From: an uncultured Cytophagia bacterium | Lineage (GTDB): Bacteria; Zhuqueibacterota; Zhuqueibacteria; Oceanimicrobiales; Oceanimicrobiaceae | DNA length: 64,000 bases | Assembly: GCA_964539665.1 (NCBI GenBank) | Contig: CAZIKB010000020.1 | Span: 526 to 64,525 of the forward strand | Reading direction: 5' to 3' | In this document: positions 2,088 to 54,053 of the stretch, in pieces | Numbering within the stretch: position 1 is the stretch's first letter | Layout of the letters: every line of letters starts with the position of its first letter | Notes under the pieces: model-generated | Seen by the model: the letters and a program-made list of their open reading frames with translations, nothing else | Told to the model about the DNA's origin: nothing | The model's database searches: none | Program-made: the position numbers and the translations under genes

Positions 2088-2092
2088 TTAAA

Positions 2093-37151: not shown

Positions 37152-37361
37152 CAAAAAGTAACCTTGAATGAAAACATGTCCTAAGAGCTACATCGTTTTA
37201 CATTTCCTCGTAGTCGACATAAGCTGTTTTATTTTAGTAACTTAACTTTAATCCCAAAAGCATATTATTCTAACTCGGTTCTGGCGCAATACTTGCATGT
37301 TACTTATTTGAAACAATATCTTTACAAACAGTTTTTCCCTTCATCGATGGGAATCCATGCC

Positions 37362-37900: not shown

Positions 37901-38503
37901 ATGATTGAAGACGCGGGTACGACTAATGAACAAATAATCGACGAAACTCAGTTATCGAAAAATGAGCGTGAGGAAATAATTCAACTTGGACTGTTATCAC
38001 AAGACGGACAGGTACAACCCTCACCAATACATCCATCGGAGCGACCTCCAATCCCAAAACGAGATGTCAATGCAACAGAAGTGCTCAATGAGGCTTATAA
38101 ATACTTACCCAGGCCTTCTTCATTTTCGCGGGGTTTATGCCTCGACATAGGTGATTATAAAATTTTACTGATTTCCGGTACAGCAAGTGTAGATGATAGT
38201 GGCCGGACTGTCCATGTGGGAGATTTTCGGGCTCAGTGCTGGAGAACGTACCGCAATATTACCTCGCTTCTCGAATCTGAAGGTATGACCTGGCATGATA
38301 TCATTCGAACCTCTTGTTATTTGAGAGATATTGAACGGGATTATAATGATTTTAATGAGGTACGCACTGCATTTTTTGATTGGTTAAAACTTGATCCTCT
38401 GCCTGCCAGCACTGGTATACAGGCACGCATTTGCCGTGAGGATTTGTTGGTGGAGATCGAAGCAATTGCGGTTTGTCCATCAAATTCAAACAGTGTATCA
38501 TAA
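37901..38503 (+). CDS. RidA/YjgF (Rid) family protein with an ~75-aa N-terminal extension
   Basis: The C-terminal 120 aa match the Rid-family pattern ([11 protein letters not shown]...[10 protein letters not shown]...[20 protein letters not shown]...[10 protein letters not shown]...VEIEAIAV). Confidence 0.65.
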
Positions 38504-38525
38504 AAACGTAGTGAAGGATAAAAGG

Positions 38526-39425
38526 ATGGAGAGAGGAAAAAACAATAAGCAGGTAATTTCAAAACCTCCCGTTGGCAATCTGGTCGATCGGGAGGCAAAG
38601 CCTGAAGGAACTATCGTAAATGTAAGGGGGATTCCAATTGGCGGTTCAGAGGTAGTGGTTATGGCAGGGCCATGTGCAGTAGAGAGTCAGAAGCAATTGT
38701 TGACGATTGCTCAAACCGTACAGGCCAGCGGAGCCAGCATCCTGCGAGGAGGCGCGTTTAAACCTCGAACCTCGCCGTATAGTTTCAAGGGATTGAAAGA
38801 GGAAGGATTGAAATTACTTGCCATGGTTCGACAACAGACAGGTCTGCCAGTTGTTACAGAGGTCATGGACACACGCCTTGTCGAAATGGTATGCCAATAT
38901 GCTGATATACTGCAGGTCGGTTCCCGGAACATGCAAAGTTTTGCTCTCCTGGAAGAAGTGGGTTTGTGCCGCAAACCAATATTGTTAAAACGCGGCATGT
39001 CCGCTACCATTAAAGAGTTTCTGTTCGCTGCTGAGTATATCCTTAATCAGGGCAACGAGCAAGTCATCCTCTGCGAACGTGGAATTCGTACTTTCGATAC
39101 TGCCACACGAAACACCCTGGACTTAAACGCCGTGCCGGTATTAAAGAAGTTCAGCCACCTCCCGGTCGTCGTGGATCCGAGCCATGGAACAGGTCACTGG
39201 TGGATGGTTCCCTCGATGGCTAAAGCAGCAGTCGCGGTTGGTGCGGATGGTCTTTTGGTTGAAGTTCATTGCAATCCAAGTGAATCTGTGAGTGATGGCG
39301 CTCAATCCCTGCGCCCTGATAAATTTGATTTGATGATGAAAGAAATTAAACAAGTTGCCCAGGCTGTGGGGAGGGAAATATTTATTCCAGAATCCATCCA
39401 TAAACTGAGCAATCCAACCGTTTAG
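38526..39425 (+). CDS. 3-deoxy-7-phosphoheptulonate (DAHP) synthase, type I-beta (stand-alone catalytic domain)
   Basis: [78 protein letters not shown]. Start set at the ATG at 38526 with an upstream AGGA; the track ORF begins earlier at 38391. Confidence 0.85.
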
Positions 39426-39561
39426 GGATAGTAAGGAATCAACAACAATACTCAAGCTTAATAATTTCTTAAACGCAGATATTTAAATTTATTAAAAATG
39501 AAAATGTATGCATACTGCGAGTAGTACGTGTTCCAGCGTCAAGACTTTACGAGCGAAATTG

Positions 39562-41532
39562 ATGCTGTTCTTGACAATCAGTTCTTTTGTTCTTTTTTTT
39601 ATAGGATTTAATGCTTCTATTTATGCCCAATCTTTGCCGGTTCTTACTTTCGTGCAAATTCCTGCACAGGCAAAACCGGATATTCAGGCTGGAAAAACTA
39701 TCTACACCCCTGAAGACAGGTATGCAGACGGCGCACGGATAGTAATTCTTCGTCCATCTTTTGCTGAGCCGGTGAATCTCACGCCGAAATTTACCGCTGC
39801 CTGCGATCCTGATGTCTCCTTTGATGGAGAATCCATAATATTCGCTGGCAAAAGAAATCCGGACGATACCTGGCAAATCTGGAGAATGAACAAAGATGGC
39901 TCTCAGAAGGTACAAATCACCCACAACCCGGGCGACTGTATCGCTCCAGTGCACGCTGGAAACCGCTTCTATCTGAATGATCCACAGCCCACACCACAGA
40001 TAATTTATGGTAGTAATATGCACGATTGGGAAAACGAGCAAAATGCAGGACCGGCTTTTGCTTTATACGGCACAGATGCGGAGGGCAAGACAATCCATCG
40101 GCTGACGTTTAATCTCAGTAACGATTTTTCGCCTGATATTTTGCCAAACGGTCGCATAGTCTTCACCAGTTGGCAAAATTACGGAGATCGATACCAGCCA
40201 GACGGTATATTGGCGTTAATGGCTATTAACAATGACGGTACTGATTTCATGCCATTTTATGGAAATCATGAAATGCCGCGGTATAAGGACATGGCTCATG
40301 TTTCTGATTTCGACAGCCGGGTTTACTTTGTTGAATCAGATCACACCACCTGGCTGGGGGGCGGTGATATTGCCTATGTTTCCAGAAGTCGGCCGCTGCA
40401 TTCCTATCATCGATTGAGCCATACACGCAATGGAATATTTCACAGTCCCTGTCCACTTCCTGGCGGCGGTCTAATCGCATCATATCGTACTAACTCCCGG
40501 AATGCAATGTTCGGCATTCACCGTATTAATCCTGAAACCGGAAAACGGTTGCAGCAAATATTTGCAGAACCAGGCTGGCATTCCATAGATGCTCAGGTAC
40601 TCAGAGCGCACCCGAAAGTAAAAGGCCGTTCCAACTGGCTCATACCCGGATCAACTACTGGAGTATTCTATTGTCTGAATAGTTACAGAACAAACCTGTC
40701 TGAGGGGAATAATATCGCTCCCGGAACGATTAAACACGTACGGGTAGTGGAAGGGATACCGCTCAGGCAAAAAAATATTTTTCCAAAAAATCAGACTGAT
40801 GTCACAAATAATCCAGACCGAGAAACTTATTCAGCAACGGCTTTCGGCCCGCGGCGAATTCTGGGAGTGGCTCCAGTTGAGAAAGACGGGTCATTTCATG
40901 TCCGGGTGCCTGCAGAAATCCCGATTACGTTTCAGTTGCTGGATGAAAACTATCTGGCTCTTAGCCAGCAAAAAGCCTGGACCTGGGTGATGGGGAACGA
41001 AAATAGAGGTTGTATCGGATGTCATGAAGATCGGGAGATGTCTCCTCCCAACAAAATGGTTCAGGCGATTATTAAGCCCCCGGTAGAACTAACACTTCCA
41101 CCGGCAAAACGTCGAACTGTCGATTTTCGCTATCAAATTGCGCCACTTATCGAATCAAAGTGCGCTACTGCCGGGTGCCATATCTCCGGGCAGACAGCGC
41201 CGAATCTCGAATCAACTCAAAGAACATCGCCTGATGCAGTATTCAGTCAGGTGTATGAAACCCTTATACGTCCAATTCAAGGAAAAAATAATGAACGGTA
41301 TGTCAAGCCCGGAAATGCGATGGAGAGTCCCCTTATTTGGAATTTGTTTGGCAAACGAATGGGTTCAGCAAAAACGCCTTACACCGGCCAAATCACGCAA
41401 ATGCCTCCCCGGAATGTGTTAAGTCTCCGGGAACGCATTTTATTTATAGAATGGATTGATTTAGGCGCACAATGGGATTCGCGTGCCGCGATAGTATCGG
41501 AATCCCAATCAAACGAAGATAATATTAAGTAA
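39562..41532 (+). CDS. secreted PD40/TolB-like beta-propeller protein with C-terminal cytochrome-c-like region (one CXXCH and one CX4CH)
   Basis: Signal peptide; PD40-like repeats (DVSFDGESIIFAGKR...WQIWRMNKDGSQKVQITHNP, DFSPDILPNGRIVFTSWQ); CIGCHEDRE and KCATAGCHISGQ motifs. Confidence 0.6.
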   Translation: MLFLTISSFVLFFIGFNASIYAQSLPVLTFVQIPAQAKPDIQAGKTIYTPEDRYADGARIVILRPSFAEPVNLTPKFTAACDPDVSFDGESIIFAGKRNPDDTWQIWRMNKDGSQKVQITHNPGDCIAPVHAGNRFYLNDPQPTPQIIYGSNMHDWENEQNAGPAFALYGTDAEGKTIHRLTFNLSNDFSPDILPNGRIVFTSWQNYGDRYQPDGILALMAINNDGTDFMPFYGNHEMPRYKDMAHVSDFDSRVYFVESDHTTWLGGGDIAYVSRSRPLHSYHRLSHTRNGIFHSPCPLPGGGLIASYRTNSRNAMFGIHRINPETGKRLQQIFAEPGWHSIDAQVLRAHPKVKGRSNWLIPGSTTGVFYCLNSYRTNLSEGNNIAPGTIKHVRVVEGIPLRQKNIFPKNQTDVTNNPDRETYSATAFGPRRILGVAPVEKDGSFHVRVPAEIPITFQLLDENYLALSQQKAWTWVMGNENRGCIGCHEDREMSPPNKMVQAIIKPPVELTLPPAKRRTVDFRYQIAPLIESKCATAGCHISGQTAPNLESTQRTSPDAVFSQVYETLIRPIQGKNNERYVKPGNAMESPLIWNLFGKRMGSAKTPYTGQITQMPPRNVLSLRERILFIEWIDLGAQWDSRAAIVSESQSNEDNIK

Positions 41533-41546
41533 ATTCAGGAGTTCCA

Positions 41547-43190
41547 ATGTATAAAAAATATTGGTATCGATTCATTATTACTATTGGATACCTCAGTTTC
41601 TTTGCAGTTACTCAGCAGTTACATTCACAACAAGACCTGCCCAGACTGGTTGATGTAACCCAAAAAACCGGGATTACTTTTGTTCATAATCTCGGTGATG
41701 ATGAAATGAGTAACCTCATCGAATCAAACGCCGCCGGCTGCGCTTTTTTTGACTATAACGGAGACGGTAACCTGGATATTTATCTGGTCAATGGCGCCTA
41801 TATTGATAAAATCAGCGATATCCGCTGGCGTAAAAATAAAGGCAAACTCACTAATGCCCTGTATCGAAATAACGGCGATGGTACCTTTACTGATGTGACA
41901 ACAAAAGCCGGTGTTGGTCACAAAGGAATGGGGATGGCTGTAGCAACCGCTGATTTTGATAACGATGGGGATCAGGATATATTTATTACAAATTGGGGAC
42001 CCAATGTCTTTTACCTGAACAACGGTGACGGCACGTTTACGGATATTACCAAAAAAGCGAAAGTGATGAATGATCTATGTGGGCTTGGGATAACGTTTCT
42101 GGATTATGATCTGGATGGATATCTGGATTTATACGTCGGTAACTACGTCGAATACGATCCTGACTATCAATTTTTCTATGCCGCGAATAAATTCCCAGGG
42201 CCCCTGGCCTATCCTGGACAACCTGACATTCTTTACCATAATAACCGCAACGGTACTTTTACTGATGTGACTAAGAAGGCCGGCGTTTATAATCCGGAAG
42301 GCAGAGCTATGGGGGTGACCTCCTGTGATATCGATAATGACGGCGACTGGGACATTTTCGTAGCTAATGATGCCATGGAAAACTACCTCTACCGCAATAA
42401 CGGCGACGGAACATTTACCAATGTTGCGATACAGACTGCAGCCGGTTTTGGACAAAACGGTGAAGTCACCTCGGCCATGAGCGGGGAATTTGGTGATATC
42501 GATCTGGATGGTTTCGTGGACATTATCGTGCCCGATATGGCTTATGGCTGTATTTATAAGAATACCGGCACCGGCTTTTTCGAAGAAATGAGCGCCCGCA
42601 TGGGGCTGGCCACTGCCTGCGGACAATACACAAGCTGGTCCGGCAATTTTTTCGATCTTGATCATGATGGTTATGGGGATCTGTTTATTACCAATGGACA
42701 CCCGCACCGATTAATAGGAGAGGAAGATTTGATGCTGTTAAATAAATCCGGTATGCGATTTATTAATGTATCAAATGAAATGGGGCCGGATTTTCAAGAC
42801 AAATTTGTCGGCCGCGGCTCTGCGGTCGGAGATTTCGATAATGACGGTGATTTAGATTTACTGGTAGCCAACCTGAATGCTCGCCCCCGCTTGCTCCGTA
42901 ATGATGGCGGTAATAAGAAAAACTGGATTATGATTCATCTGATTGGAACCAAGAGCAACCGCGATGCCATTGGCAGCCGGATTCGATTAACCGCCGGCAA
43001 TATAACGCAAACCAAATGGCGGTCAGGCAATTCAGGCTACCTGTCGCAAAGTGATTATCGAATGCATTTTGGCATAGGCGATAATACCTACATAGACAAG
43101 ATCGAGGTACGCTGGCCAACTGGAAAAATCCAAATTCTCGAAAAAATTAAAGCAAATCAGGTGTTAACTGTTAAAGAACCAAAATTTTAA
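41547..43190 (+). CDS. CRTAC1-family protein, single module (FG-GAP + ASPIC/UnbV), 547 aa, secreted
   Basis: FFDYNGDGNLDIYL, DFDNDGDQDIF, DIDNDGDWDIF, DFDNDGDLDLL, and C-terminal ASPIC (NWIMIHLIGTKSNRDAIGSRIRLTAGN...SGNSGYLSQSDYRMHFGIG). Confidence 0.85.
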   Translation: MYKKYWYRFIITIGYLSFFAVTQQLHSQQDLPRLVDVTQKTGITFVHNLGDDEMSNLIESNAAGCAFFDYNGDGNLDIYLVNGAYIDKISDIRWRKNKGKLTNALYRNNGDGTFTDVTTKAGVGHKGMGMAVATADFDNDGDQDIFITNWGPNVFYLNNGDGTFTDITKKAKVMNDLCGLGITFLDYDLDGYLDLYVGNYVEYDPDYQFFYAANKFPGPLAYPGQPDILYHNNRNGTFTDVTKKAGVYNPEGRAMGVTSCDIDNDGDWDIFVANDAMENYLYRNNGDGTFTNVAIQTAAGFGQNGEVTSAMSGEFGDIDLDGFVDIIVPDMAYGCIYKNTGTGFFEEMSARMGLATACGQYTSWSGNFFDLDHDGYGDLFITNGHPHRLIGEEDLMLLNKSGMRFINVSNEMGPDFQDKFVGRGSAVGDFDNDGDLDLLVANLNARPRLLRNDGGNKKNWIMIHLIGTKSNRDAIGSRIRLTAGNITQTKWRSGNSGYLSQSDYRMHFGIGDNTYIDKIEVRWPTGKIQILEKIKANQVLTVKEPKF

Positions 43191-43205
43191 AAGAGAGTGA
43201 GAAAA

Positions 43206-46097
43206 ATGAGGAGATTTGCAGTTTTACTGTTTCTTCTAATCAGTATAACACTGACCTCAGGATGGAATTTATTCGGGCAGAAATCCAAAGACCGAATATA
43301 TTTGGGCGAGAAAGCCTGTCGTCCGTGTCATCATCTTGCAGGAAAACGAGATCAGTTCAATCCCTGGTGGCTGGCTAAACATTCCAAAGCTTATGCTGCA
43401 TTGGCGCTGCCGGAATCCAAACAGATTGCAAAGTTGTCAGGCGTTGATGTCGATCCTTACAAAAGTCCCATCTGCCTGGGATGTCATACTACCGCTTATA
43501 ACGTAGAAGCCTGGGAACGTGATGACACTTTTCATTTTGAAGATGGCGTACAATGTGAACTTTGCCATGGACCTGGCAGCGAATATATAGACGCCAGTAT
43601 TATGCTGGACCGGGAGAAATCCTTAGCGGCCGGTTTAAAAATACCGGTCGAACGAGACTGCATGGTTTGTCATAAGGAAAAAGGCTCCCACGTGGCGGTC
43701 CTGGATGTCAAAAAATTCAATTATAAGGAAGCGCTTAAGGAAATCGCCCACCCTGGGCACGGTGGATTCCTTAAAGAATTCTTTTTTCAAGTACAGCGAA
43801 TTCTCTATGAATGGTTCCCAAAAGATGAATTGCCTGTTGAGTCTCTGCTTGGTCCGAAATATGTTGGCGCTCTGGCATGTGGTAAATGTCATGGTATTAC
43901 ATCCGTTGGTCATCAATTTAGTAAATGGCGTTTCTCCAAACACGCCCGTACCTATGCCATCCTTAATACTGAGCGAGCAGCAGAAATTGCCAGTGAGATG
44001 GGATTGTCCGGCAATCCACAAAAGTTGGGAAAATGCCTGCAATGCCATACCACAGGCGCCGGAGAGCCTGCTGGTCGGTTCTCTGAAAGTTTCGATCCAT
44101 TCCAGGGAGTACAGTGTGAAAGCTGTCACGGCCCTGGAAGCGAATATATGGCAGACGCCATTATGCTGGATCCGGTAGCAGCCGCAGATGCCGGATTAAG
44201 AGACGTGAATAAGGAAATTTGTGTTAAATGTCACACCGAAGGTATTCATGGTCACTCTTTCGATTTTGAAACCATGTGGCCTGAGATCGATCACTCGAAA
44301 TGGCAAGAAGAATATTCTAATGTGGAATATAAAACTCCACTAAACCTGGCAATTACTCAGGATGGAAAGCGGTTATTTATCGCATGTGAAGCCTCTAACA
44401 GCCTTATTGTTGTGAATGCGGAATCTGAAAAAATACTGGCAGAAGTGGAAATCGGTACCCAACCGCACTTTGTTTGCTTTTCCCCGGATGAAACCCGCGC
44501 CTATGTAAGTAATCGCGGTTCCGACAATGTTTCAGTTGTTGATGCAAATACTTATCTGGTGCTATCGACAATTACAGTCGGGGATGAACCGCACGAGATG
44601 GCAACGAATAAAGCAGGAAATATTTTGTACATAGCCAATGCAGGCACCTACGACGTCTCCGTGGTCGATCTGGAAAAAGGCCAGGAAATTAAACGTCTGG
44701 CAGCATCCAGAGGTCCATGGGGTGTGGCCCGTTCGCCTGATGGCCAGTTTGTCTATGTTAGCAATAATTTACCCAGACATGGTAAATTCCGCACTCCAAC
44801 CGCATCTGAAGTGACTGTTATTGAAACAGACCGTTCAATTGTCAAACATCGATATACCGTGCCGGCGGCCAATTTAATCCAGGGAATTGCAATAGCGCCA
44901 AACGGTGAATTTGCGCTCACGACTTTAATCCGCACCAAAAACCTGGTTCCTATGACACGCAATATCCAGGGCTGGATTATTACCAACGGCATCGGTATTC
45001 TCTGGAAGGATGGTCGTGTGGATCAATTGCTGCTGGACAACGTGAGTGACTTTTTTGCGGATCCCACTGATGTCGTCTTTTCAAAAGACGGCCGGTACGC
45101 TTTTGTTAGCGGCGGTGGGGTCCAGGAAATCGCCATGATTGACATCAAGAAAATGAAACAGATTCTGGAACAGGCCACGGATAGCGAACTTATGGAAGTG
45201 CTGCCCAACCACCTTGGCATGAGCACGCAATATATTCTAAAACGGATTCCGGTTGGACAAAGTCCGCGAGGGATGGCGGTCGCTCCGGACAATAAATACC
45301 TGTACGTTGCCGACGGATTAGATGACGCCATTTCTGTTATTGATATCAAAAAACGGCAGCGAGTCAAAGTCATCGAACTCGGAGGCCCGCAAGAAATTAC
45401 CCAGACACGGTACGGCGAGCGTATCTTTCACAGCGCGGGGAACACCTTTACCCGACAGTTTTCATGCCATTCATGCCATCCGGATGGCGGCGTCGATGGA
45501 ATAACTTATGACATAGAACCGGATGGCCTGGGCTACAATCCTGTGGATAACCGCACATTGAGAGGTGTGAACGACACTGCTCCCTTTAAGTGGACCGGCA
45601 AAAATCCCACATTAAGACGCCAGTGTGGACCCAGACTGGCTGCATTTTTCACACGTATCGATCCGTTCACAGCAGAGCAATCCGCGGCGTTGGAACATTA
45701 CATCGTAACTATTCCCAGACCGCCAAACCGCTACCGAACCGGAGAAGAACTCACCCCAACTCAAAGACGGGGCAAACGGCTTTTCGAAAGGAAATACGAC
45801 AATTCCGGCAATGAAATTCCATTGAGTAATCGCTGCGATACTTGCCATTCACCGCCCTATTATACCAACCGGGAAATAGCCGACGTAGGTTCTGCATCCT
45901 GGCTGGATACAAATAGTAAATTCGACATCCCTCATCTCAACAACATTTATGCGACGCCACCCTATCTTCATGATGGACGAGCAAAATCATTGGAGGAAAT
46001 CTGGACGATTTATAACCCAAATGACACTCATGGTCTTTCAAATGATTTAACAAAAGACCAGCTCAATGATCTTATTGAATATTTGAAAACACTTTAA
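43206..46097 (+). CDS. ~10-heme cytochrome c fusion: two tandem tetraheme modules, a YVTN-type beta-propeller and a C-terminal di-heme CCP/MauG-like domain
   Basis: Eight CXXCH in two repeated sets (CRPCH, CLGCHTT, CELCHGPGSEY, CMVCH; CGKCH, CLQCHTT, CESCHGPGSEY, CVKCH). Propeller repeats (AYVSNRGSDNVSVVD, LYIANAGTYDVSVVD, VYVSNN..., LYVADGLDDAISVID). C-terminal CHSCHPDGG and CDTCHSPP. Confidence 0.75.
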   Translation: MRRFAVLLFLLISITLTSGWNLFGQKSKDRIYLGEKACRPCHHLAGKRDQFNPWWLAKHSKAYAALALPESKQIAKLSGVDVDPYKSPICLGCHTTAYNVEAWERDDTFHFEDGVQCELCHGPGSEYIDASIMLDREKSLAAGLKIPVERDCMVCHKEKGSHVAVLDVKKFNYKEALKEIAHPGHGGFLKEFFFQVQRILYEWFPKDELPVESLLGPKYVGALACGKCHGITSVGHQFSKWRFSKHARTYAILNTERAAEIASEMGLSGNPQKLGKCLQCHTTGAGEPAGRFSESFDPFQGVQCESCHGPGSEYMADAIMLDPVAAADAGLRDVNKEICVKCHTEGIHGHSFDFETMWPEIDHSKWQEEYSNVEYKTPLNLAITQDGKRLFIACEASNSLIVVNAESEKILAEVEIGTQPHFVCFSPDETRAYVSNRGSDNVSVVDANTYLVLSTITVGDEPHEMATNKAGNILYIANAGTYDVSVVDLEKGQEIKRLAASRGPWGVARSPDGQFVYVSNNLPRHGKFRTPTASEVTVIETDRSIVKHRYTVPAANLIQGIAIAPNGEFALTTLIRTKNLVPMTRNIQGWIITNGIGILWKDGRVDQLLLDNVSDFFADPTDVVFSKDGRYAFVSGGGVQEIAMIDIKKMKQILEQATDSELMEVLPNHLGMSTQYILKRIPVGQSPRGMAVAPDNKYLYVADGLDDAISVIDIKKRQRVKVIELGGPQEITQTRYGERIFHSAGNTFTRQFSCHSCHPDGGVDGITYDIEPDGLGYNPVDNRTLRGVNDTAPFKWTGKNPTLRRQCGPRLAAFFTRIDPFTAEQSAALEHYIVTIPRPPNRYRTGEELTPTQRRGKRLFERKYDNSGNEIPLSNRCDTCHSPPYYTNREIADVGSASWLDTNSKFDIPHLNNIYATPPYLHDGRAKSLEEIWTIYNPNDTHGLSNDLTKDQLNDLIEYLKTL

Positions 46098-46112
46098 AAA
46101 GGAAATATCAGA

Positions 46113-47291
46113 ATGAATCGAATATTTATTATCCTGACAACATTCATTTTCCTTGCACCTCACGGCTGGTGTCAATCAGATACTAACATCACCATGGCGG
46201 GTGAGCCCTACGTTTATTCTAAATGGGAGACATTCACAAGCGAATCAACACATGATGGTCTAATCAGCGACCATATCTTTTTTCTGGAAGCAGATGGTAA
46301 TAGTTTATGGATTGGCACCGAAGGTGGATTGGTGCTATATGAGAAAGGCGCCTGGAAAAGTTGGACGGAGAAGGACGGCCTGCCGTGGAATGTGGTAATG
46401 GGAATCGCAAAAGATCCAAAAACCGGGGAATTGTGGCTGGCGCTATTTGGAGAAGGTATCGCCCGATTTAGCGGAGGCTACTTTCAACACTACACCCAAA
46501 TGAACAGCGGCTTAATAAATGATGTGGTGTATGGCATAGATATTCAAGGGGATTACGTGTGGGTTGCTACCACGGCTGGCATCAGCCGGTATAATCAGGT
46601 GTCCGGAGAATGGACCTTGTTCAATGAGAAACATGCTCCAATGGAGGAAGTTTGGACTTATAATGTAGACGCTGCAGAAGACAAAGTCTATTTTGCCGTC
46701 TGGGGTGGCGGTATTCTTGAGTGGGATGTGGCCACTGAAAGCTGGAATGTTTATCATGATCCTGATGGAGAAATGGAAATTGATTTATACCGGGATGACG
46801 GCCTAATTCATGTTATTACCACCGCTGCATCTTACATCGATGGTGTGCTCTGGGCTGCAACATACTTTGGATTGAGCCGATACGATGGCCGCAACTGGCG
46901 TGGGTATATGGATCATGACAGCGGCCTTCCCAGCAATTTCATAAATTTTACGGTAGGCCGAAACGGTACTTCAAGCTATAGCTGCACAGATAAAGGACTG
47001 GGAGTGTTAGTAGATTATAAAACCGATACCTGGGTCACATATCAGCGGGATGAGGAAGACGCCGAAACATGGACCGCCCATGTGATGGTTGGAAAAAAAG
47101 AAATTAAAACCGTGCCCACTAATCTGGATTTACCAAATCATTTCACCTTAGCTCTGGAATTTATGGGAAACGATTTATGGGTTGGCACCGGACATGGACT
47201 GGCCCGAGGCATTGGCATAGGTTATTACACAGGATTGCAAGCTAAAAATACTAATTCTGGAAAGATTAAAACCTCTGATTCTCAAAATTAG
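46113..47291 (+). CDS. secreted beta-propeller protein made of Reg_prop (two-component-regulator propeller) repeats, no output domain
   Basis: Repeats such as LWIGTEGGLVLYEKGAWKSWT, VWVATTAGISRYNQVSGEWTLF, LWAATYFGLSRYDGRNWRGY, LWVGTGHGLARG. Confidence 0.65.
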   Translation: MNRIFIILTTFIFLAPHGWCQSDTNITMAGEPYVYSKWETFTSESTHDGLISDHIFFLEADGNSLWIGTEGGLVLYEKGAWKSWTEKDGLPWNVVMGIAKDPKTGELWLALFGEGIARFSGGYFQHYTQMNSGLINDVVYGIDIQGDYVWVATTAGISRYNQVSGEWTLFNEKHAPMEEVWTYNVDAAEDKVYFAVWGGGILEWDVATESWNVYHDPDGEMEIDLYRDDGLIHVITTAASYIDGVLWAATYFGLSRYDGRNWRGYMDHDSGLPSNFINFTVGRNGTSSYSCTDKGLGVLVDYKTDTWVTYQRDEEDAETWTAHVMVGKKEIKTVPTNLDLPNHFTLALEFMGNDLWVGTGHGLARGIGIGYYTGLQAKNTNSGKIKTSDSQN

Positions 47292-47350
47292 AAAATCATA
47301 TTTAATAGTACAATATTTTGTATTTCAATATCTGCAGGAAGAAAAGAACC

Positions 47351-48763
47351 ATGAACAGATTACATATTTTATTTGCAATTATAGTTGTCGGGTGTACTTT
47401 CATATTCTGTTCTAATGTGAGTGCGCAGACCAGTGAATCGGTTTCTGCTACAAAATCCGACACAACATCATACGGCAAAACACCCATTGAATATGAACCT
47501 TATAGCCGTTTCGAAAAGCCATATAAAAGATTTTTCATCGACACCCTGGTATATCCCGGCTATGGGCGGCATATCCCAGTACCCGAACAAATTGACACGG
47601 TTAAAATAGGTTTTATCGGTCCCATTATTGGCTCTGTTTCTGAGTCTGCGGGAGGCCCGGATGAAATAAAATTAAAGGTGAACCAGCGAGTCGTGCGTTG
47701 GGATGGCTATCGGGCTTCTCATCTGGCGCCGATTGGGATTAAAATGTTTCAGGGTGCCCAACTTGCAATTGAACATGCAAATACAAACGGTGGCTATAAA
47801 GGAAAAGTACCCTATAAGCTGATTGTTCGTAACGACAACGGTAACTGGCGTTCTTCCGGAAGAGAGGTCATTACGCTTGCATATAAAGATAGCGTTTGGG
47901 CTATCCTTGGGACAGTGGATGGGGCAAATAGCCATATTGCCATACGCGCTGCTCTAAAAGCTGAAATTCCAGTTATGAATACTGCGGATACTGATCCCAC
48001 ATTTGTGGAAACCAGAATTCCCTGGGTGTTCCGATGCATCACAGACGACCGGCAGATGTGCTATCTACTGGCGGATTTCGCCTTTAAAAAATTGGGGCTC
48101 AAACGCATAGCTGCACTTCGTGCAACCAACCGCTACGGGCGCATGAGTATTGACGAGTTCCGGGACGCGGCCACGCGTCTTGGGTATCCCTTCAAGATCG
48201 AACTGCAATATCAAGAGGGCGATACGGATTTCAGCAGTCAGTTAAAGAGGATTCAAGCAATGAAGGCGGATGGTGTAATCACTTACGGCAACGCAATCGA
48301 ATCTGCTTTGATACTCAAACAAATGCGGGAAATGGGCATGGAGCAGTGGTTCTTCGGCAGCGATCGCATGGTTACACCTGAATTTCTTGAAATCGTCGAA
48401 GAGAATCATGGACGTGTAGCAGCAGGCTATCCGTATGATCCTACCAGTGAAGATGCTGAGTATCTGCAATTTGTAGAAGATTTTCAGAACCAGTATGGAG
48501 ATGCACCAGAAACATACGCCGCACATGCTTATGACGGCATGAATATGATTATTGCGGCCATTGAAAAAGCCGGATTGAATCGAGCACTCATTAGAGATCA
48601 ACTGGTTGCTATGTCCCAATATAAGGGTGTAACTGGCAGAAAAGAATTCGATGCGGTCTACAGCGATAGAAGTCCTGCTTTTTTAGCAATCTTTAAAAAC
48701 GGCAAATTCGAATATTATACCAAGGAAGAAATTTTCTCGGATAAAATTGATCTACCTCGGTAA
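47351..48763 (+). CDS. periplasmic solute-binding protein, Peripla_BP_6 / LivK-like family (orphan)
   Basis: Signal peptide, then KIGFIGPIIGS...GAQLAIEHANTNGGYKG...YKLIVRNDNGNW...LGTVDGANSHIA...IPVMNTADTDPT. Start set at the ATG at 47351 with an upstream GGAAG. Confidence 0.75.
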   Translation: MNRLHILFAIIVVGCTFIFCSNVSAQTSESVSATKSDTTSYGKTPIEYEPYSRFEKPYKRFFIDTLVYPGYGRHIPVPEQIDTVKIGFIGPIIGSVSESAGGPDEIKLKVNQRVVRWDGYRASHLAPIGIKMFQGAQLAIEHANTNGGYKGKVPYKLIVRNDNGNWRSSGREVITLAYKDSVWAILGTVDGANSHIAIRAALKAEIPVMNTADTDPTFVETRIPWVFRCITDDRQMCYLLADFAFKKLGLKRIAALRATNRYGRMSIDEFRDAATRLGYPFKIELQYQEGDTDFSSQLKRIQAMKADGVITYGNAIESALILKQMREMGMEQWFFGSDRMVTPEFLEIVEENHGRVAAGYPYDPTSEDAEYLQFVEDFQNQYGDAPETYAAHAYDGMNMIIAAIEKAGLNRALIRDQLVAMSQYKGVTGRKEFDAVYSDRSPAFLAIFKNGKFEYYTKEEIFSDKIDLPR

Positions 48764-48780
48764 TTGAACTTCTAGGTGAT

Positions 48781-50016
48781 ATGAAAACCCATCGATTGCT
48801 CTGGATTTTGTGGTTAGTTTTCTTCTGGACAGTCCAGATACAGAGTCAAACCAAAACCTCTGCTCAAACTGCTCACCAAAGAAAGCCACCAGGTGTTCTG
48901 GATTCACCTGTGAATTTTTCAGGATGGATAGGAACCAGCAGGAGTCCTGATCAGCTAAAAGAAATTCGTATTGGTTTTTTCGCACCGGTGGACCCGGATG
49001 ATCTGGTGGGCGCTTCTATGCTTAATGCTGCTGTGTTGGCGGTAGAAGAAGCAAATGCTGCGGGAGGATTCCAGGGCGTACCGTTCAGACTGGTTAAACG
49101 CTGGGCACACAAACCCTGGGGCGCTGGCTCCAAAGAAATGATTAAGCTGGTGTATCAGGACAGTGTGTGGGCAGTGATTGGATCTTTGAACGGAAGTGCA
49201 ACGCATGTCGCGGAACAGGTTGTAACCAAAGCGTGGGTACCTCTGCTCTCGCCAGTCTCGGCTGATCCGACGCTTACTTATATTCGCATTCCATGGATGT
49301 TCCGGCTACCTCCCGATGACCAGAAACAGGCGGAAGCTATTGTACACAAAGGAATTCAGGCGTTATCTCTGAATAATATTGGTCTCATCACTTCTACTGA
49401 TCACGACGGCCGTATATTTGCAAAGGAAACGCTCGCCACAATGAATGATGCACAGACTCCGCCAGTATTTCATTTTCAGTTGCCTCTGCCCGGGATTGAT
49501 TTTAATGATATCGTCCAACGAGTGCTGTCATTCAATCCTGATGGAGTCATTGTACGCCTGCCGTGGGGTGAAACTCTTGAATTGCTGAATCATTTTCAAC
49601 ACAGTGATTTTGATGTCCCCGTATTCATTCCCTGGATTCCGGGTTTGCAGGAGGCAGATTTGACAAATCAATACGATGGAGATATTTTCTTTGTGCAACC
49701 GTTTTCTGGAACGGGAAATCCAGTATATACCGCCTTCGCTCAAATTTATCGAGAGCGCTATGAAGCGAGCCCCACGCCTGGCGCCACCTACACCTATGAT
49801 GCTGTAAATATTCTGATCCAATCACTACAAAAAAGCGGATTAAACCGGGCCAGACTTCGGGATGCTATTGCCGGGATCGGCGATTTTCATGGCGCCACCG
49901 GTAAAATTTCCTGGGATAACGGCGGCGGAAATGTAGCAGAACCTGTTCTTCGGATTCTATCTGGAAAAGCACCGACCGTGAAAGGGAAAATGCAAAAAAT
50001 CAATATTTTGCATTGA
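48781..50016 (+). CDS. second Peripla_BP_6 / LivK-like solute-binding protein (paralog, orphan)
   Basis: Signal peptide, then IRIGFFAPVDPDD...LNAAVLAVEEANAAGGFQG...IGSLNGSATHVAEQV...VPLLSPVSADPTLT. Confidence 0.75.
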   Translation: MKTHRLLWILWLVFFWTVQIQSQTKTSAQTAHQRKPPGVLDSPVNFSGWIGTSRSPDQLKEIRIGFFAPVDPDDLVGASMLNAAVLAVEEANAAGGFQGVPFRLVKRWAHKPWGAGSKEMIKLVYQDSVWAVIGSLNGSATHVAEQVVTKAWVPLLSPVSADPTLTYIRIPWMFRLPPDDQKQAEAIVHKGIQALSLNNIGLITSTDHDGRIFAKETLATMNDAQTPPVFHFQLPLPGIDFNDIVQRVLSFNPDGVIVRLPWGETLELLNHFQHSDFDVPVFIPWIPGLQEADLTNQYDGDIFFVQPFSGTGNPVYTAFAQIYRERYEASPTPGATYTYDAVNILIQSLQKSGLNRARLRDAIAGIGDFHGATGKISWDNGGGNVAEPVLRILSGKAPTVKGKMQKINILH

Positions 50017-50097
50017 AGGAATTAGCTCATCAGGGTCTTCAGCCTTTTCAGCCAGATTTGTAACTAACATTTTTAAGCAAAAAAAGGAGACAATTTA

Positions 50098-51426
50098 ATG
50101 TATAACACTCAATCTATTCAACGGGTTATCGATTTAACGGATCCTTCTAAAAACATTATTTATAATATGACAGTAGAAAAAGCCAGAGAGCTTGTTGCGT
50201 GTGGTAATCCAGAGAAAGTTCGCACCATTGACGGTCAATTCGCTATTGTAGCAAAGAAAGGCAAAAAAGTACGCCTGGCGCGCTCTATAGGAAGACCACT
50301 GCGTTATTTTATTGCCAAAAAAGCGGATGGCCCAAATCTTATCGTAGCAGACCGAATCGATACTATTTTCAATTATTTAAACAAAGAGAAAATTGACGAC
50401 CAATTTCATCCTTCATATACGCGTATGGCGCCAGCACATTACGTCACTGAAGTTGACCTTGTTGGTTGCCCGGATCCAAATCCGACTTATCAGAGATTTT
50501 TCACACCCTTAAGAAACACCCAAAAGCTGGATGTTGTTGATATTGGCTGCCTTTATATGCAGACCCTGTACGATGAAATTGTCAAATGGCTGCAAAACAG
50601 AGCCACAGAAGGTCCCATAGGAGTATGTTTTTCAGGCGGGATTGACAGCGGTTCGATTTTCCTGCTAACCTATAATGCGATGCTTAAACTTGGATTATCT
50701 CCGGCACGGCTTAAGGCTTTTACGCTTGCTGTTGAAGGCGGCGGTGATGATTTGGCTCAAGCAAAATGTTTCCTCGATAAACTTGATCTCTCTATGTTTC
50801 TGGAACCGATTGAAGTCTCAAAAGATGATGTGAATTGGCGGGATACGATTCGTGTAGTCGAGGATTACAAGCCTCTCGACATCCAGGCTGCAGCCATGAC
50901 TCTTGCCTTATATCGTGGTATTAGAAAGCGTTATCCGGAATGGCGCTTCTTTATTGACGGGGACGGCGGAGATGAAAACCTGAAAGATTATCCCATTGAA
51001 GAAAATCCTGAACTCACTATTCGCAGTGTCTTAAATAATTTAATGCTTTATCATGAAGGCTGGGGTGTGGACTCAATCAAGCATTCCCTGACCTATTCCG
51101 GTGGACTCAGTCGAGGTTACACACGCACCTACGCTACCGCAAGCCTGTTTGGCTTTGATAACTATAGCCCTTACACACTTCCAAACGTGATTGAGGTTGC
51201 GGAATCCATACCGTACGTGGCTTTAACAGAATGGAACCATGAGAAGTTGTATCGATTAAAAGGCGAGATTGTCTCCAAAGGTATAAAATCCATAACAGGT
51301 ATGGATATGCCTGTATTTCCAAAACGCAGGTTTCAGCATGGCGCTGCAACACATAGTGAGTTTGACAATTTGTTTCCCAAAAAACCTGCTGAGTACCGAC
51401 GAACTTTCTACAGTGTCTATGAATGA
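50098..51426 (+). CDS. asparagine-synthase-like PP-loop ATP-pyrophosphatase lacking the N-terminal Cys2 glutaminase nucleophile (442 aa)
   Basis: PP-loop GVCFSGGIDSGS. An AsnB-like N-terminal remnant (IDGQFAIVAKKGKKVRLARSIGRPLRYFIAK) with no Cys at position 2. Its stop overlaps the next gene's start. Confidence 0.6.
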   Translation: MYNTQSIQRVIDLTDPSKNIIYNMTVEKARELVACGNPEKVRTIDGQFAIVAKKGKKVRLARSIGRPLRYFIAKKADGPNLIVADRIDTIFNYLNKEKIDDQFHPSYTRMAPAHYVTEVDLVGCPDPNPTYQRFFTPLRNTQKLDVVDIGCLYMQTLYDEIVKWLQNRATEGPIGVCFSGGIDSGSIFLLTYNAMLKLGLSPARLKAFTLAVEGGGDDLAQAKCFLDKLDLSMFLEPIEVSKDDVNWRDTIRVVEDYKPLDIQAAAMTLALYRGIRKRYPEWRFFIDGDGGDENLKDYPIEENPELTIRSVLNNLMLYHEGWGVDSIKHSLTYSGGLSRGYTRTYATASLFGFDNYSPYTLPNVIEVAESIPYVALTEWNHEKLYRLKGEIVSKGIKSITGMDMPVFPKRRFQHGAATHSEFDNLFPKKPAEYRRTFYSVYE

Positions 51427-52366
51427 GGCTTCACCTGTTCAGCCTGATGATCGGTGGATATTAGCACAACGCCCATCGAAAAATTCTGTGAACGCCTGGC
51501 AGCCTTATGCTTATCTCGCAGAAAAAGAACGAATGCAAAACGGTGTGGTCGAAAATGTGGCAACCATATTTCTGACAAATCGTGAATGCCCATTCCGCTG
51601 CCTGATGTGTGATCTCTGGAAGAATACAACGGAACACCGAGTGCCTGAGGGAGCAATCCCAACACAAATTCAATACGCTTTGGAGCAGCTCCCACCAGCC
51701 TCACAAATCAAGCTGTACAATAGCGGTAATTTTTTCGATGATCAAGCGATTCCACCTGTCGATATCCCAGAGATCGCGAAGCTGATAGAGTCATTCGAAT
51801 CAGTCATTGTCGAATGCCATCCTCGGCTGGTGAGTAATCGCTGTCTGGCCTTTCGGGATTTATTACGATCTGAGCTGCAAATAGCAATGGGTTTAGAAAC
51901 CGTCCATCCTGATGTGCTCAAGAAATTAAACAAGCGCATGACGCTGAAAGATTTTGAGCATGCCGCGAATTTTCTCATAAATAATGACCTGTCAGTTCGA
52001 GCTTTTATACTGCTTGGCGCTCCCTATCTGAACGAAGCAGAATCAGTAATTTGGGCCAGGCGCTCAATAGATTTTGCCTTCGATGTCGGGGTAGAATGTT
52101 GTGTGATCATTCCAACGAGGAGTGGAAATGGTGCAATAGAACGGCTGCATAAACTCGGGTTATATGGCCCACCGAAAATTGCATCCCTGGAAGAAGTGCT
52201 TGAATACGGAATTCAGTTACAGCAAGGACGTGTGTTTGCCGACCTCTGGGATGTTGAGAAATTCGCAAATTGTAATCAATGCAGTGCACAGCGAATTCAC
52301 AGGATGGGCCAGATGAATTTCACACAAATGATAGCGTCAGTTATACATTGTAACTTTTGTTTTTAA
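51419..52366 (+). CDS. radical SAM enzyme (CX3CX2C), translationally coupled to the AsnB-like gene
   Basis: CPFRCLMCDLW motif. The ATG at 51419 overlaps the upstream TGA at 51424-51426. Extra C-terminal Cys residues (CNQCS, HCNFCF). Confidence 0.7.
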   Translation: MNEASPVQPDDRWILAQRPSKNSVNAWQPYAYLAEKERMQNGVVENVATIFLTNRECPFRCLMCDLWKNTTEHRVPEGAIPTQIQYALEQLPPASQIKLYNSGNFFDDQAIPPVDIPEIAKLIESFESVIVECHPRLVSNRCLAFRDLLRSELQIAMGLETVHPDVLKKLNKRMTLKDFEHAANFLINNDLSVRAFILLGAPYLNEAESVIWARRSIDFAFDVGVECCVIIPTRSGNGAIERLHKLGLYGPPKIASLEEVLEYGIQLQQGRVFADLWDVEKFANCNQCSAQRIHRMGQMNFTQMIASVIHCNFCF

Positions 52367-52388: not shown

Positions 52389-54053
52389 TTACTCTCGAAT
52401 ACCAACGCCCTGTTCAATTGTCAGATAGCGGTCAGCTTCAAGTTCTTGAAAAACCTCTGTAGTACCGTCCGTCCAACGAATCTCCAGCCGATCAACCTGC
52501 TTATAATCACCGAGACCGAAGTGCATTCGAGGATCATTATAGGAGAGGTAACTGGTTGCCCACTGGTTGATCCTGACTTGTTTTTTCATGCCTGCCTGTA
52601 TCGTCACTCTGGCTCCAATTGCAGAAGCGGTTCCTTTTTTCCCAACCAGAGTTACTCCCAGCCAGTGATTTCGATTGCCCCCCTCGTTTTGAAGAAGCGT
52701 TGCTGTGGCGCGCAGGTCCACATGAGAGACAATAATGTCTAAATCTCCATCATTGTCAAAATCCCAAACCGCAGCTCCCCGTCCGGAACGCTTATCTTTA
52801 AAATAGGTGCTTCGCTCTGGTCCTACATTGTGAAAATGTCCGGTTCCATCGTTTTCCAACAAGAGTGGTGGTTGCTCGACAAGTTCTTCTGCTAATCCAT
52901 TTGCCGAGAAGAGGTCTAAGTCGCCATCGTTATCAAAATCGAAAAGAGCGGCTGCCCATACACCCAAACCTGCAAATGCGCTGCTAAGGCCGCTCCACTC
53001 TGTAATATCTTCAAAAATACCATCCCCGAGATTACGGTAAAGCGCTCCATATCGAAGGTCTACAACCAGCAAATCAATTAATCCATCCCCATCAATATCT
53101 CCGATTGAGCCGTGCATGGAGCCAGTTGGCATCCCCCGATCGTTGACAGTTACGCCTGAAGCTTGAGCAACTTCCTTGAATTTACCGTTTCCATCGTTTC
53201 GAAACAGAAAATTCATCTGGTGATCATTCCCCTGGAATATATCTAAATCTCCATCGTCATCGTAGTCAAAAACGGTCAATCCCATACATTTCGACTCAGG
53301 GTAGTGTAATCCCAGCTCCTTTGTAATATCGGTAAAGCTGCCATCGGTTTCCTGACGGTAAAACATGGAGGCCTGCCCGTGGTACTCGGACGGATGCGGC
53401 ATCATATCTGGTGTGGTTGGAGATACATAAGATGGATCAAATGCCAGGAAATTACATACCATCAAATCCAGCGCCTCGTCACCATTGTAATCCCAGAAGG
53501 CTACTCCAGCGCTCCACTTGGTATGCCCGTTCAGTTTTTCTGGCCCCCTGAGTCCCAATGAGTCAGTAACATCTGTGAAAGTGCCATCTCCATTATTAAG
53601 GTAAAAAACATTGGGGCCGTAATTCAAAAGATAAATATCAACATCACCATCGTCGTCATAGTCTATTGCCCCGGCAGCCATACTCCATTGGCGATCATCA
53701 ACTCCGGCTTTCTCAGAAACTTCTGTAAACGATCCATCACCGTTATTACGATAAAGTCGATTCGGCGTATCTTTAAACACTAATCCTGCCGGGTCGCTGA
53801 CACCTTCCAGATATGTTCCATTTAGCATATATAAATCAAGATCTCCGTCACCGTCATAATCAAACACCGTAATTCCGGAACCGCTGCTCTCCAGAATATT
53901 TTCGTAAGTATAGTCACCGAATGTATATTTAAAATCAATTCCTGCCTGCTCAGTTATATCAGTGAAAGTTACATCTGGCGTCTGGGCCCATGAGGTCACA
54001 GTGATAGCTATTAAAGGTAGAGAACAAATATTACGTAATAATTTCAATCTCAC
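52389..54053 (-). CDS. CRTAC1-family protein, single module (FG-GAP + ASPIC/UnbV), 554 aa, secreted
   Basis: FDYDGDGDLDLY, IDYDDDGDVDIY, FDYDDDGDLDIF, FDFDNDGDLDLF, and C-terminal ASPIC (NHWLGVTLVGKKGTASAIGARVTIQAG...ATSYLSYNDPRMHFGLG). Confidence 0.85.
   Translation of the reverse strand: MRLKLLRNICSLPLIAITVTSWAQTPDVTFTDITEQAGIDFKYTFGDYTYENILESSGSGITVFDYDGDGDLDLYMLNGTYLEGVSDPAGLVFKDTPNRLYRNNGDGSFTEVSEKAGVDDRQWSMAAGAIDYDDDGDVDIYLLNYGPNVFYLNNGDGTFTDVTDSLGLRGPEKLNGHTKWSAGVAFWDYNGDEALDLMVCNFLAFDPSYVSPTTPDMMPHPSEYHGQASMFYRQETDGSFTDITKELGLHYPESKCMGLTVFDYDDDGDLDIFQGNDHQMNFLFRNDGNGKFKEVAQASGVTVNDRGMPTGSMHGSIGDIDGDGLIDLLVVDLRYGALYRNLGDGIFEDITEWSGLSSAFAGLGVWAAALFDFDNDGDLDLFSANGLAEELVEQPPLLLENDGTGHFHNVGPERSTYFKDKRSGRGAAVWDFDNDGDLDIIVSHVDLRATATLLQNEGGNRNHWLGVTLVGKKGTASAIGARVTIQAGMKKQVRINQWATSYLSYNDPRMHFGLGDYKQVDRLEIRWTDGTTEVFQELEADRYLTIEQGVGIRE

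Follow-up and report, generated by a model that had tools for sequence, protein, structure and literature searches.

A pair of coupled genes encoding an AsnB-like enzyme and a radical S-adenosylmethionine (SAM) enzyme was analyzed in a 64,000-nucleotide (nt) stretch of DNA from an uncultured Cytophagia bacterium (contig CAZIKB010000020.1; the whole stretch is hereafter called the window, and positions without another label refer to it). As judged from its sequence, the first protein is a glutaminase-dead adenylating enzyme of the AsnB superfamily. The sequence of the second places it as a relative of RaSEA, though not RaSEA proper. The two genes overlap by 8 nt, this overlap is conserved in various phyla, and the pair keeps company with genes for exported proteins over at least five phyla. 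On the basis of these features and by analogy with the archaeal ArcS-RaSEA system, we propose, with a probability of roughly 0.4, that the pair acts as a two-enzyme complex that would adenylate a carboxylate, form a C-N bond without glutamine, and carry out a radical step; its substrate would probably be a small molecule derived from chorismate. The pair is not described in Pfam, in NCBIfam, among the sequences of solved structures, or in the literature that we searched.

Two coupled enzymes

A preliminary description of the window, prepared from the letters and their open reading frames (ORFs) only, had singled out two overlapping ORFs (50098..51426 and an ORF ending at 52366), and both are present. 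The first protein belongs to the AsnB/asparagine synthetase-like (AS-like) superfamily by its SGGxDS signature, its two-domain fold, and a match to Pfam Asn_synthase (PF00733; residues 170 to 304 only; E = 7e-12) that reaches 46.1 bits against a curated cut-off of 21. Its PP-loop, S179-G-G-I-D183-S184 (SGGIDS), is kept in 22 aligned homologs from several phyla, with SAGIDS in some of them. The adenylation machinery is intact, as the preliminary description had suggested: residues S234-S239 and 345-352 of Escherichia coli AsnB are the aligned counterparts of the PP-loop and of the DGDGGDE motif. The absence of the catalytic Cys2 was likewise correctly noted there; the N terminus reads MYNTQS, and position 2 varies among the 22 homologs but is never Cys. 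A longer form of the protein is impossible, because an in-frame TAA (50074-50076) lies 7 codons upstream of the ATG with no start codon in between. An AGGAG sequence is found 8 nt upstream of this ATG, and the start is common to all homologs (441 to 448 amino acids [aa]). The protein is not a canonical glutamine-hydrolyzing AsnB, with scores of 36.3 bits for TIGR01536 (cut-off, 267.1) and 15.2 bits for PRK09431 (cut-off, 499). A housekeeping AsnB whose glutaminase domain would appear under a corrected start, an outcome that had been considered from the outset, is excluded.

An AlphaFold2 (AF2) model of the AsnB-like protein (mean predicted local distance difference test [pLDDT] score, 75) was compared with solved structures using Foldseek. 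Full-length matches were obtained with beta-lactam synthetase (1mbz; E = 1e-11), human ASNS (8sue; 1e-11), carbapenam synthetase (1q19; 3e-9), E. coli AsnB (1ct9; 4e-9), and the hydroxyamidotransferase TsnB9 (7ylz; 8e-9), all at 12 to 17% identity. Because these matches extend over the full AsnB fold, we take the N-terminal domain to be a shortened N-terminal nucleophile (Ntn)-type domain that lacks its nucleophile. Despite this loss, the domain contains many invariant residues, including the motifs FHPSYTRMAPAHY and GCPDPNP. The likeness to ATP-dependent AsnB homologs claimed in the preliminary description thus holds at the level of the fold, beta-lactam and carbapenam synthetases included, but the protein is a member of no named family. 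It is about equally distant from every characterized branch of the superfamily. A single-sequence phmmer search against PDB sequences returned no match at E ≤ 1, and a profile built from the 22 sequences returned E. coli AsnB as its sole PDB match (E = 0.007; PP-loop region). A profile search against 1.84 billion cluster representatives recovered only 960 proteins at E ≤ 1e-3, mostly fragments of the same family, and we therefore regard the family as an isolated clade. One segment (residues 291 to 345; window positions ~50968 to 51132; GDENLKDYPIEENPELTIRSVLNNLMLYHEGWGVDSIKHSLTYSGGLSRGY) is nearly invariant across phyla and is modeled at a pLDDT of <50; it may serve as a lid or an interface and become ordered only with the partner or the substrate.

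The ATG of the radical SAM gene (51419-51421) precedes the stop codon of the AsnB-like gene (51424-51426), which gives an 8-nt overlap, ATGAATGA; a second ATG at 51423 is in a frame other than that of the radical SAM ORF. The coupling reported earlier is thus real, although its length was given as 4 nt. Independent gene calls on public contigs show the same 315-aa product and an identical 8-nt overlap. Related loci were collected with a one-genome-per-species scan, and the counts given below refer to the 80 best-scoring of at least 598 genomic matches (a number of matches, not of species). Among the 75 loci with room downstream of the AsnB-like gene, a radical SAM gene was found in 68, adjacent and on the same strand in 66, and its ATG lies at exactly -8 in 54 loci from various phyla (ATGAATGA, ATGAGTAA, and similar sequences). 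The gaps around the pair have medians of 81 nt (upstream) and 40 nt (downstream). This conserved coupling is the strongest sign that both proteins are made and act together, and they are probably produced in equal amounts and complexed. A candidate fusion of the two proteins (a 761-aa representative, P0287) was rejected as a frameshifted low-complexity translation with no real radical SAM part.

The CX3CX2C motif of the second protein, C57-PFR-C61-LM-C64 (CPFRCLMC), had been recognized in the preliminary description and is invariant among 20 homologs. The generic Pfam Radical_SAM profile gives 25 bits, under its cut-off of 29.5. The one family match that is informative, TIGR01210 (RaSEA), aligns over profile positions 4 to 288 of 313 (E = 5e-32) with 111 bits, against an equivalog cut-off of 212.15, and all 20 family members match it with ~110 bits (i.e., half of the cut-off). 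The nearest curated families are RaSEA and MnmL/YtqA. A search against PDB sequences gave no match. The structural model is of high confidence (pLDDT, 94), and its Foldseek matches are generic radical SAM folds (PFL-AE, Elp3, and LipA); no solved RaSEA structure is among the 50 best matches to solved structures. No SPASM domain was detected with Pfam at E ≤ 0.1, and the protein does not group with the SPASM/twitch maturases. Cysteines outside the CX3CX2C motif are also invariant among the 20 homologs (C142, C227-C228, C285-x2-C288, and C311), and the C-terminal ones (285-288 and 311-314) form a CxxC...C(xxC) group. These extra cysteines could bind a second Fe-S cluster or zinc.

Distribution and genomic neighborhood

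Each of the two proteins has at least 8,000 database relatives. The 120 best matches (58 to 100% identity, where 100% corresponds to the window's own proteins) come from Calditrichota, Anaerolineales, FCB-group bacteria, Pirellulales, Gemmataceae, "Deferribacteres," and Bacteroidota. In the genome scan, 598 of 600 stretches were confirmed to encode a relative. The 80 best loci include Candidatus Neomarinimicrobiota (74% identity), Calditrichota, many Bacteroidota (e.g., Lutibacter citreus), Chlorobiota, Planctomycetota (Gemmata, Pirellula, Maioricimonas, and Phycisphaerae), Verrucomicrobiales, and Acidobacteriota. The AsnB-like protein retains 60 to 80% identity over at least seven phyla, and the radical SAM protein likewise retains 60 to 80% across phyla. 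Rather than a sporadic secondary-metabolite cluster, the pair is a module of very wide conservation in a locus for exported proteins.

The neighborhoods were compared by clustering all ORFs of the 80 loci and by tblastn searches with the window proteins; the resulting frequencies are indicative only, since the 80 loci are a best-scoring subset. The most frequent neighbor is a CRTAC1-like propeller of the type encoded at 52389-54053, which occurs within 10 kb of the pair at 53 of the 80 loci (median identity, 65%), and a CRTAC1-like gene lies immediately upstream of the pair on the same strand at 41 of 70 loci. Peripla_BP_6 solute-binding proteins follow (29 loci; median identities, 42% and 29%), together with a RidA/chorismatase-like protein (23 loci; 60%), a Reg_prop propeller (21 loci; 44%), DAHP synthase (18 loci; 65%), and homologs of hydrazine synthase alpha (9 loci; 26%) and beta-gamma (8 loci; 42%). 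The usual order in Bacteroidota is Reg_prop, RidA-like, solute binder, DAHP synthase, solute binder, CRTAC1, CRTAC1, AsnB-like, and radical SAM. At four loci, a chorismatase of the FkbO/Hyg5 type (409 aa) takes the place of the short RidA-like protein, and the two never occur together. A flavin adenine dinucleotide (FAD) enzyme is encoded behind the pair at 21 loci (Planctomycetota, Acidobacteriota, and a "Deferribacteres" metagenome-assembled genome [MAG]) and is absent from the window. No locus with this enzyme has genes for the solute binders, DAHP synthase, or the RidA-like protein. Its likeness to the CmlS halogenase, QhpG, LodB, and GoxB is weak, with all matches far below the cut-offs. 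In some genomes, the pair has no recognizable conserved neighbors.

At one locus (L083, 1-21332), from a Pirellulales MAG, the AsnB-like/radical SAM/FAD trio lies between hpnC/D/E-like genes (two SQS_PSY genes and an amine oxidase gene) and hpnG/hpnH/shc-like genes (families PNP_UDP_1, hpnG-like; Radical_SAM plus DUF3463, hpnH-like; and squalene-hopene cyclase). A link to hopanoids was rejected as coincidence, as tblastn found hopanoid genes in none of the other 87 loci.

More divergent full-length relatives of the AsnB-like protein were found in a "Berkelbacteria" MAG and in archaea, and those at three loci (L087, 8001-13654; L088; and L092) have no radical SAM partner. In the "Berkelbacteria" MAG (L087), the gene lies directly behind a complete Liv-type ABC importer with its binding protein, and it overlaps by 8 nt the gene for a 782-aa protein that appears by eye to be sensor kinase-like and adjoins a sigma-54 activator. 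The 782-aa protein was considered as a radical SAM candidate and rejected (hhalign probability, 2%). On two archaeal contigs, the divergent relative adjoins regulators with two HTH_AsnC domains.

Within the window, the pair closes a run of plus-strand genes that begins with the RidA-like gene (Table 1). The secreted binding proteins and the DAHP synthase that the preliminary description had placed upstream are both there.

Table 1. Coordinates of the coupled pair and of its neighbors in the window
Feature	Position	Strand	Remark
RidA/chorismatase-like protein	37901-38503	+	Recurs with the pair in Bacteroidota, 60-65% identity
DAHP synthase	38391-39425	+	NF006421, 454 bits vs cut-off of 335; recurs in Bacteroidota, 60-65%
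Hydrazine synthase alpha homolog (HZS_alpha)	39508-41532	+	
CRTAC1-like FG-GAP/UnbV_ASPIC protein	41547-43190	+	
Hydrazine synthase beta-gamma homolog, 966 aa, multiheme	43197-46097	+	Two c554 domains, propeller, diheme end
Exported Reg_prop-type beta-propeller	46113..47291	+	Conserved neighbor
Two exported Peripla_BP_6 solute-binding proteins	47318..50016	+	Starts at 47318 and 48781; directly upstream of the pair
AsnB-superfamily adenylating enzyme (predicted), 442 aa	50098..51426	+	Ntn-like N-terminal domain without Cys2; PP-loop, 179-184; DGDGGDEN, 287-294
Start/stop overlap ATGAATGA, 8 nt	51419..51426	+	Translational coupling
Radical SAM enzyme, 315 aa, TIGR01210 (RaSEA)-like	51419..52366	+	CX3CX2C at 57-64
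CRTAC1-like FG-GAP/UnbV_ASPIC propeller, 554 aa	52389..54053	-	
TPR plus FG-GAP/UnbV_ASPIC protein, 1,197 aa	54400..57993	+	Recurrent neighbor (L081, L082, L086)

The RidA-like and DAHP synthase ORFs overlap by 113 nt as listed, the latter being read from a TTG; its true start is probably further downstream, because homologs are ~292 aa long. The Rid family and the C-terminal part of chorismatases match the short RidA-like protein equally well, at 50 bits each. Signal peptides are visible by eye on all nonenzymatic neighbors and on none of the AsnB-like, radical SAM, DAHP synthase, and RidA-like proteins. The two solute binders of the window match branched-chain amino acid binders best and UrtA weakly, all far below the cut-offs. 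The closest relative of the locus (L091; 81% identity) has the same gene order as the window.

We consider 9995-57993 to be one locus of ~48 kb. Its first part (9995-33686) resembles a polysaccharide utilization locus array, with a TonB-dependent receptor (9995-13501), a 530-aa ORF without a Pfam match (13588-15180), and three tandem paralogs of ~1,240 aa (16406-28685), each with two FG-GAP/UnbV_ASPIC units. The array also encodes a 696-aa c554-like protein, a CRTAC1-like protein, and a TPR protein, a trio that recurs directly behind the pair at L086. A PAS histidine kinase, an NtrC-type sigma-54 activator, and a single-domain response regulator (33763-37826) are encoded ahead of the RidA-like gene, and a second sigma-54 activator is found at 89-1222 (minus strand). 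A sigma-54-like motif, TGGCGC-N5-TTGC, occurs at 37282-37296; an enrichment of such promoters in the window was rejected, the six consensus matches against 4.3 expected being not significant. Scans for sigma-70 promoters and terminators gave results at or below shuffle expectation, a search of Rfam for riboswitches at gathering thresholds and a tRNA scan of the window returned no match and no tRNA, and a PADLOC scan for defense systems gave no match. A region of ~2 kb (1223-3173) has no ORF of ≥150 aa. It holds a 141-aa ORF (2093-2518, minus strand) with a zinc ribbon and an FHA-like part by eye and a 96-aa fragment (1745-2035, minus strand), possibly a pseudogene, that by eye is similar to a solute-binding protein N terminus.

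Proposed function and alternatives

In the proposed reaction, the AsnB-like enzyme would spend ATP to adenylate a carboxylate and would then form a C-N bond with a nucleophile, which could be the amine of an amino acid (e.g., lysine), free ammonia, or an ammonia-like species. The nucleophile would not come from glutamine, because the glutaminase nucleophile is absent. Its RaSEA-like partner would perform a 5'-deoxyadenosyl radical step on the adduct; by analogy with ArcS-RaSEA, this step could break the C-N bond of the donor so that the product retains the nitrogen.

Most likely, the pair acts on a small molecule and not on a peptide or a tRNA. At loci of the FCB type, including that of the window, the co-clustered DAHP synthase and chorismatase-like protein would probably supply this molecule as a hydroxy-aromatic or cyclohexadiene carboxylic acid derived from chorismate. 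Such an acid is the most economical substrate for these loci, because the short and long chorismatase-like proteins alternate beside a dedicated DAHP synthase. The shikimate-derived precursor that the preliminary description had thought conceivable gains support from the recurrence of the DAHP synthase and the RidA/chorismatase-like protein (or a full chorismatase) beside the pair in other phyla. At loci of the PVC type, a hydroxylated acid of comparable kind could come from the FAD enzyme. The product would probably serve, or be handled by, the exported machinery (i.e., solute binders, CRTAC1-like propellers, hydrazine synthase homologs, and multiheme cytochromes), and the solute binders and other exported proteins point to a product that acts outside the cytoplasm or to a precursor that comes from there.

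Several observations weigh against this proposal. The DAHP synthase and chorismatase-like genes accompany the pair at only about a quarter of the loci and are absent from those of the PVC type, which have the FAD enzyme instead. No characterized homolog is available, and the nearest relatives of the radical SAM protein are all tRNA enzymes. The cross-phylum identity of 60 to 80% would be unusual for secondary metabolism. At 7 of the 75 loci, the AsnB-like gene has no radical SAM homolog downstream (up to 10 kb fetched), and an exporter for the product is not evident in the window. Finally, the low pLDDT of the invariant segment 291-345 means that the pocket is not readable from the AF2 model.

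A different substrate class is the first alternative. The pair may mature either a peptide of ribosomal origin or one of the exported proteins encoded at the locus, with the AsnB-like enzyme amidating or lactamizing a side chain or the C terminus and the radical SAM enzyme cross-linking or otherwise modifying a residue before export, as with ribosomally synthesized and posttranslationally modified peptides (RiPPs) or the protein-derived cofactors of quinohemoprotein amine dehydrogenase and methylamine dehydrogenase. AS-like lasso cyclases, TsrC, PesC, and FzmA do act on peptides, and the 22-aa FzmZ precursor of fosfazinomycin was long overlooked. In our screen, however, ORFs of 25 to 130 aa clustered across 91 related loci and the window yielded no conserved short ORF, only shadow ORFs inside conserved genes, and a precursor gene would not fit into the gaps on either side of the pair. 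RiPP recognition element (RRE)/PqqD-like families and leader peptidase/transglutaminase-core families were not found in the Pfam results for the neighboring genes, and no SPASM domain was seen (see above). A lasso- or RiPP-type pair, considered in the preliminary description, is therefore not upheld. For the maturation of a protein, one may point to the CRTAC1-like gene that so often directly precedes the pair (41 of 70 loci), to the weak likeness of the FAD enzyme to the cofactor maturases QhpG, LodB, and GoxB, and to the CCP/MauG-like diheme end of the beta-gamma homolog with its MauG-type tryptophan (PMC12758564). The FAD enzyme is, however, equally like the CmlS halogenase, with all matches far below the cut-offs, and the dedicated DAHP synthase and chorismatase-like protein, which point to a small molecule, would go unexplained. 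We consider a peptide or protein substrate unlikely.

The tRNA-modifying relatives of the radical SAM protein raise the question of whether the pair is instead a housekeeping RNA modification system, i.e., a bacterial analog of ArcS-RaSEA that modifies a nucleoside of tRNA or rRNA with a group of the amide or amidine type, in which case the synteny would be incidental. RaSEA and MnmL/YtqA, the nearest curated families, and Elp3, among the best full-length folds, are all tRNA enzymes; both proteins are conserved at 60 to 80% identity across phyla, and some genomes hold the pair without recognizable conserved neighbors. A housekeeping tRNA or cofactor enzyme had been mentioned in the preliminary description as an alternative for the radical SAM protein; that it would prove RaSEA-like, in a tRNA modification lineage, was not foreseen, while the synteny argues against housekeeping. 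The RaSEA score stays at half of the equivalog cut-off in all 20 members, and no TGT, ArcS, PUA, THUMP, or Que genes were found in the window or in the neighbors examined. Neither protein is basic (isoelectric points, 7.05 and 5.7; family medians, 5.9 and 7.5). The high identity is a property of the whole module rather than a sign of an RNA substrate, because the CRTAC1-like, DAHP synthase, and RidA-like neighbors are equally conserved (60 to 65%). With the shared synteny with exported proteins in at least five phyla also counting against it, an RNA substrate seems distinctly unlikely to us.

A bolder form of the small-molecule proposal, which we regard as quite doubtful, would make the pair the core of a pathway for an unknown small-molecule cofactor or redox mediator of a widespread family of exported CRTAC1-like beta-propellers and hydrazine synthase-like heme enzymes, comparable to pyrroloquinoline quinone and the propeller quinoproteins. 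Support in this pathway would come from the dedicated DAHP synthase with the chorismatase-like protein or, in Planctomycetota and other lineages, from an FAD hydroxylase, and nitrogen transfer would be radical assisted, independent of glutamine, and of the ArcS-RaSEA type.

The hydrazine synthase homologs could also be linked to the pair through nitrogen itself. The AsnB-like enzyme would then capture hydroxylamine, hydrazine, or an amine that these periplasmic proteins produce or handle and that arrives via the solute binders, forming a hydroxamate, hydrazide, or amide for processing by the radical SAM enzyme. In the lineage of the window, the pair does end an operon of the alpha homolog, a CRTAC1-like protein, the beta-gamma homolog, and two binders; TsnB9 and FzmA are AS-like precedents for the transfer of hydroxylamine and hydrazine; the loss of the glutaminase site requires a free nitrogen nucleophile; and the solute binder at L087 is most like the urea-binding UrtA, though far below the cut-off. 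On the other hand, hydrazine synthase homologs accompany the pair at only 8 to 9 of the 80 loci, an ABC permease is not present in the window, and TsnB9 and FzmA need glutamyl-linked donors and a working glutaminase domain. Moreover, the homologs do not retain the residues on which hydrazine synthesis depends (PMC12758564), and we judge such capture to be improbable.

Scarcely credible is a plain ammonia-dependent asparagine synthetase or similar amidotransferase of primary metabolism, with the radical SAM protein unrelated to it; the intact synthetase-domain motifs, the divergent archaeal relatives that adjoin AsnC/Lrp-type regulators without a radical SAM partner, and the 7 of 75 bacterial loci without an adjacent radical SAM gene fit this view, but the scores far below the TIGR01536 (36 versus 267 bits) and PRK09431 (15 versus 499 bits) cut-offs, the richness of the N-terminal domain in invariant residues though its nucleophile is missing, and the operon shared with exported proteins speak against it, and the conserved 8-nt coupling would be left unexplained.

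Comparison with known systems

The trio of AsnB-like, radical SAM, and FAD enzymes in Planctomycetota recalls, in logic only and with no homology claimed, pyrrolysine biosynthesis, in which the radical SAM enzyme PylB, the ATP-grasp amide ligase PylC, and the oxidoreductase PylD work on an amino acid-derived small molecule. PylC, as an ATP-grasp enzyme, and PylB, from a different radical SAM family, have folds unrelated to those of the pair.

Peptide-directed AS-like enzymes (lasso cyclases, TsrC, PesC, and FzmA) and TsnB9 share the superfamily of the AsnB-like protein and convert carboxylates to amides, lactams, nitriles, hydrazides, or hydroxamates. As a group, AS-like enzymes accept ammonia, hydroxylamine, hydrazine, and intramolecular amines (PMC13622209, PMC13060819). 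The pair differs from the peptide systems in that no precursor among ORFs of 25 to 130 aa, no RRE, and no leader peptidase was found with it, and the AsnB-like protein is not a member of the lasso cyclase family. FzmA and TsnB9 also differ from it because their glutamyl-linked donors require a hydrolytic glutaminase site. With beta-lactam and carbapenam synthetases, the AsnB-like protein shares the best full-length structural matches (E = 1e-11 to 3e-9), an Ntn-like domain without the catalytic cysteine, and a PP-loop for acyl adenylation followed by amine attack. Identity to these enzymes is, however, 12 to 16% with no sequence-level PDB match, clavulanate and carbapenem genes are not present nearby, and the N-terminal domain of the AsnB-like protein is shorter (~160 aa), rich in invariant residues, and part of a protein coupled to a radical SAM enzyme.

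The genomic context of the pair in the window corresponds to a recently published cluster. In clade I of the non-anammox hydrazine synthase homolog clusters (clades I to III), the gene order is an alpha homolog, a CRTAC1 FG-GAP protein, a beta-gamma homolog with two c554 domains, and two ABC substrate-binding proteins, and the authors concluded that conservation does not extend to the residues needed for hydrazine synthesis (PMC12758564, Genome Biol Evol, December 2025). Positions 39508-50016 of the window reproduce this order, and the locus thus belongs to this type; the window also holds genes that are not discussed in the article. The text of the article and the supplements available to us do not mention the AsnB-like or radical SAM genes, and the pair is much more widespread than the hydrazine synthase homologs. 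The pair is the one cytoplasmic component plainly open to assay in a large exported system of unassigned role. It offers a biochemical way into the bacterial CRTAC1-like propellers and the non-anammox hydrazine synthase homologs, whose origin and role are under active discussion.

The only characterized relative of the radical SAM protein, RaSEA, takes part in archaeosine synthesis in Euryarchaeota. There, ArcS joins lysine to preQ0, and RaSEA then strips off the lysine skeleton so that just the nitrogen stays behind; ArcS has activity only when complexed with RaSEA (PMC11298593). By analogy, the pair would likewise combine a C-N bond-forming enzyme with a radical SAM partner of the TIGR01210 type and would introduce nitrogen via an amine adduct without glutamine. 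In contrast to ArcS, which is of the TGT/PUA type, the bond-forming partner in the window is an ATP-dependent enzyme of the AsnB fold. Moreover, the pair is bacterial, neither TGT nor preQ0 genes lie near it, its synteny is with genes for exported proteins, and its radical SAM protein is not a RaSEA equivalog. Both superfamilies are already well known, and what is new is the combination of a glutaminase-dead AS-like ligase with a RaSEA-like radical SAM enzyme. If the analogy is true, radical-assisted, glutamine-free nitrogen transfer reaches from archaeal tRNA to bacterial metabolism. The closest known counterparts are ArcS-RaSEA for the logic of the pair, the beta-lactam and carbapenam synthetases for the fold of the AsnB-like protein, and the hydrazine synthase homolog cluster for the genomic context.

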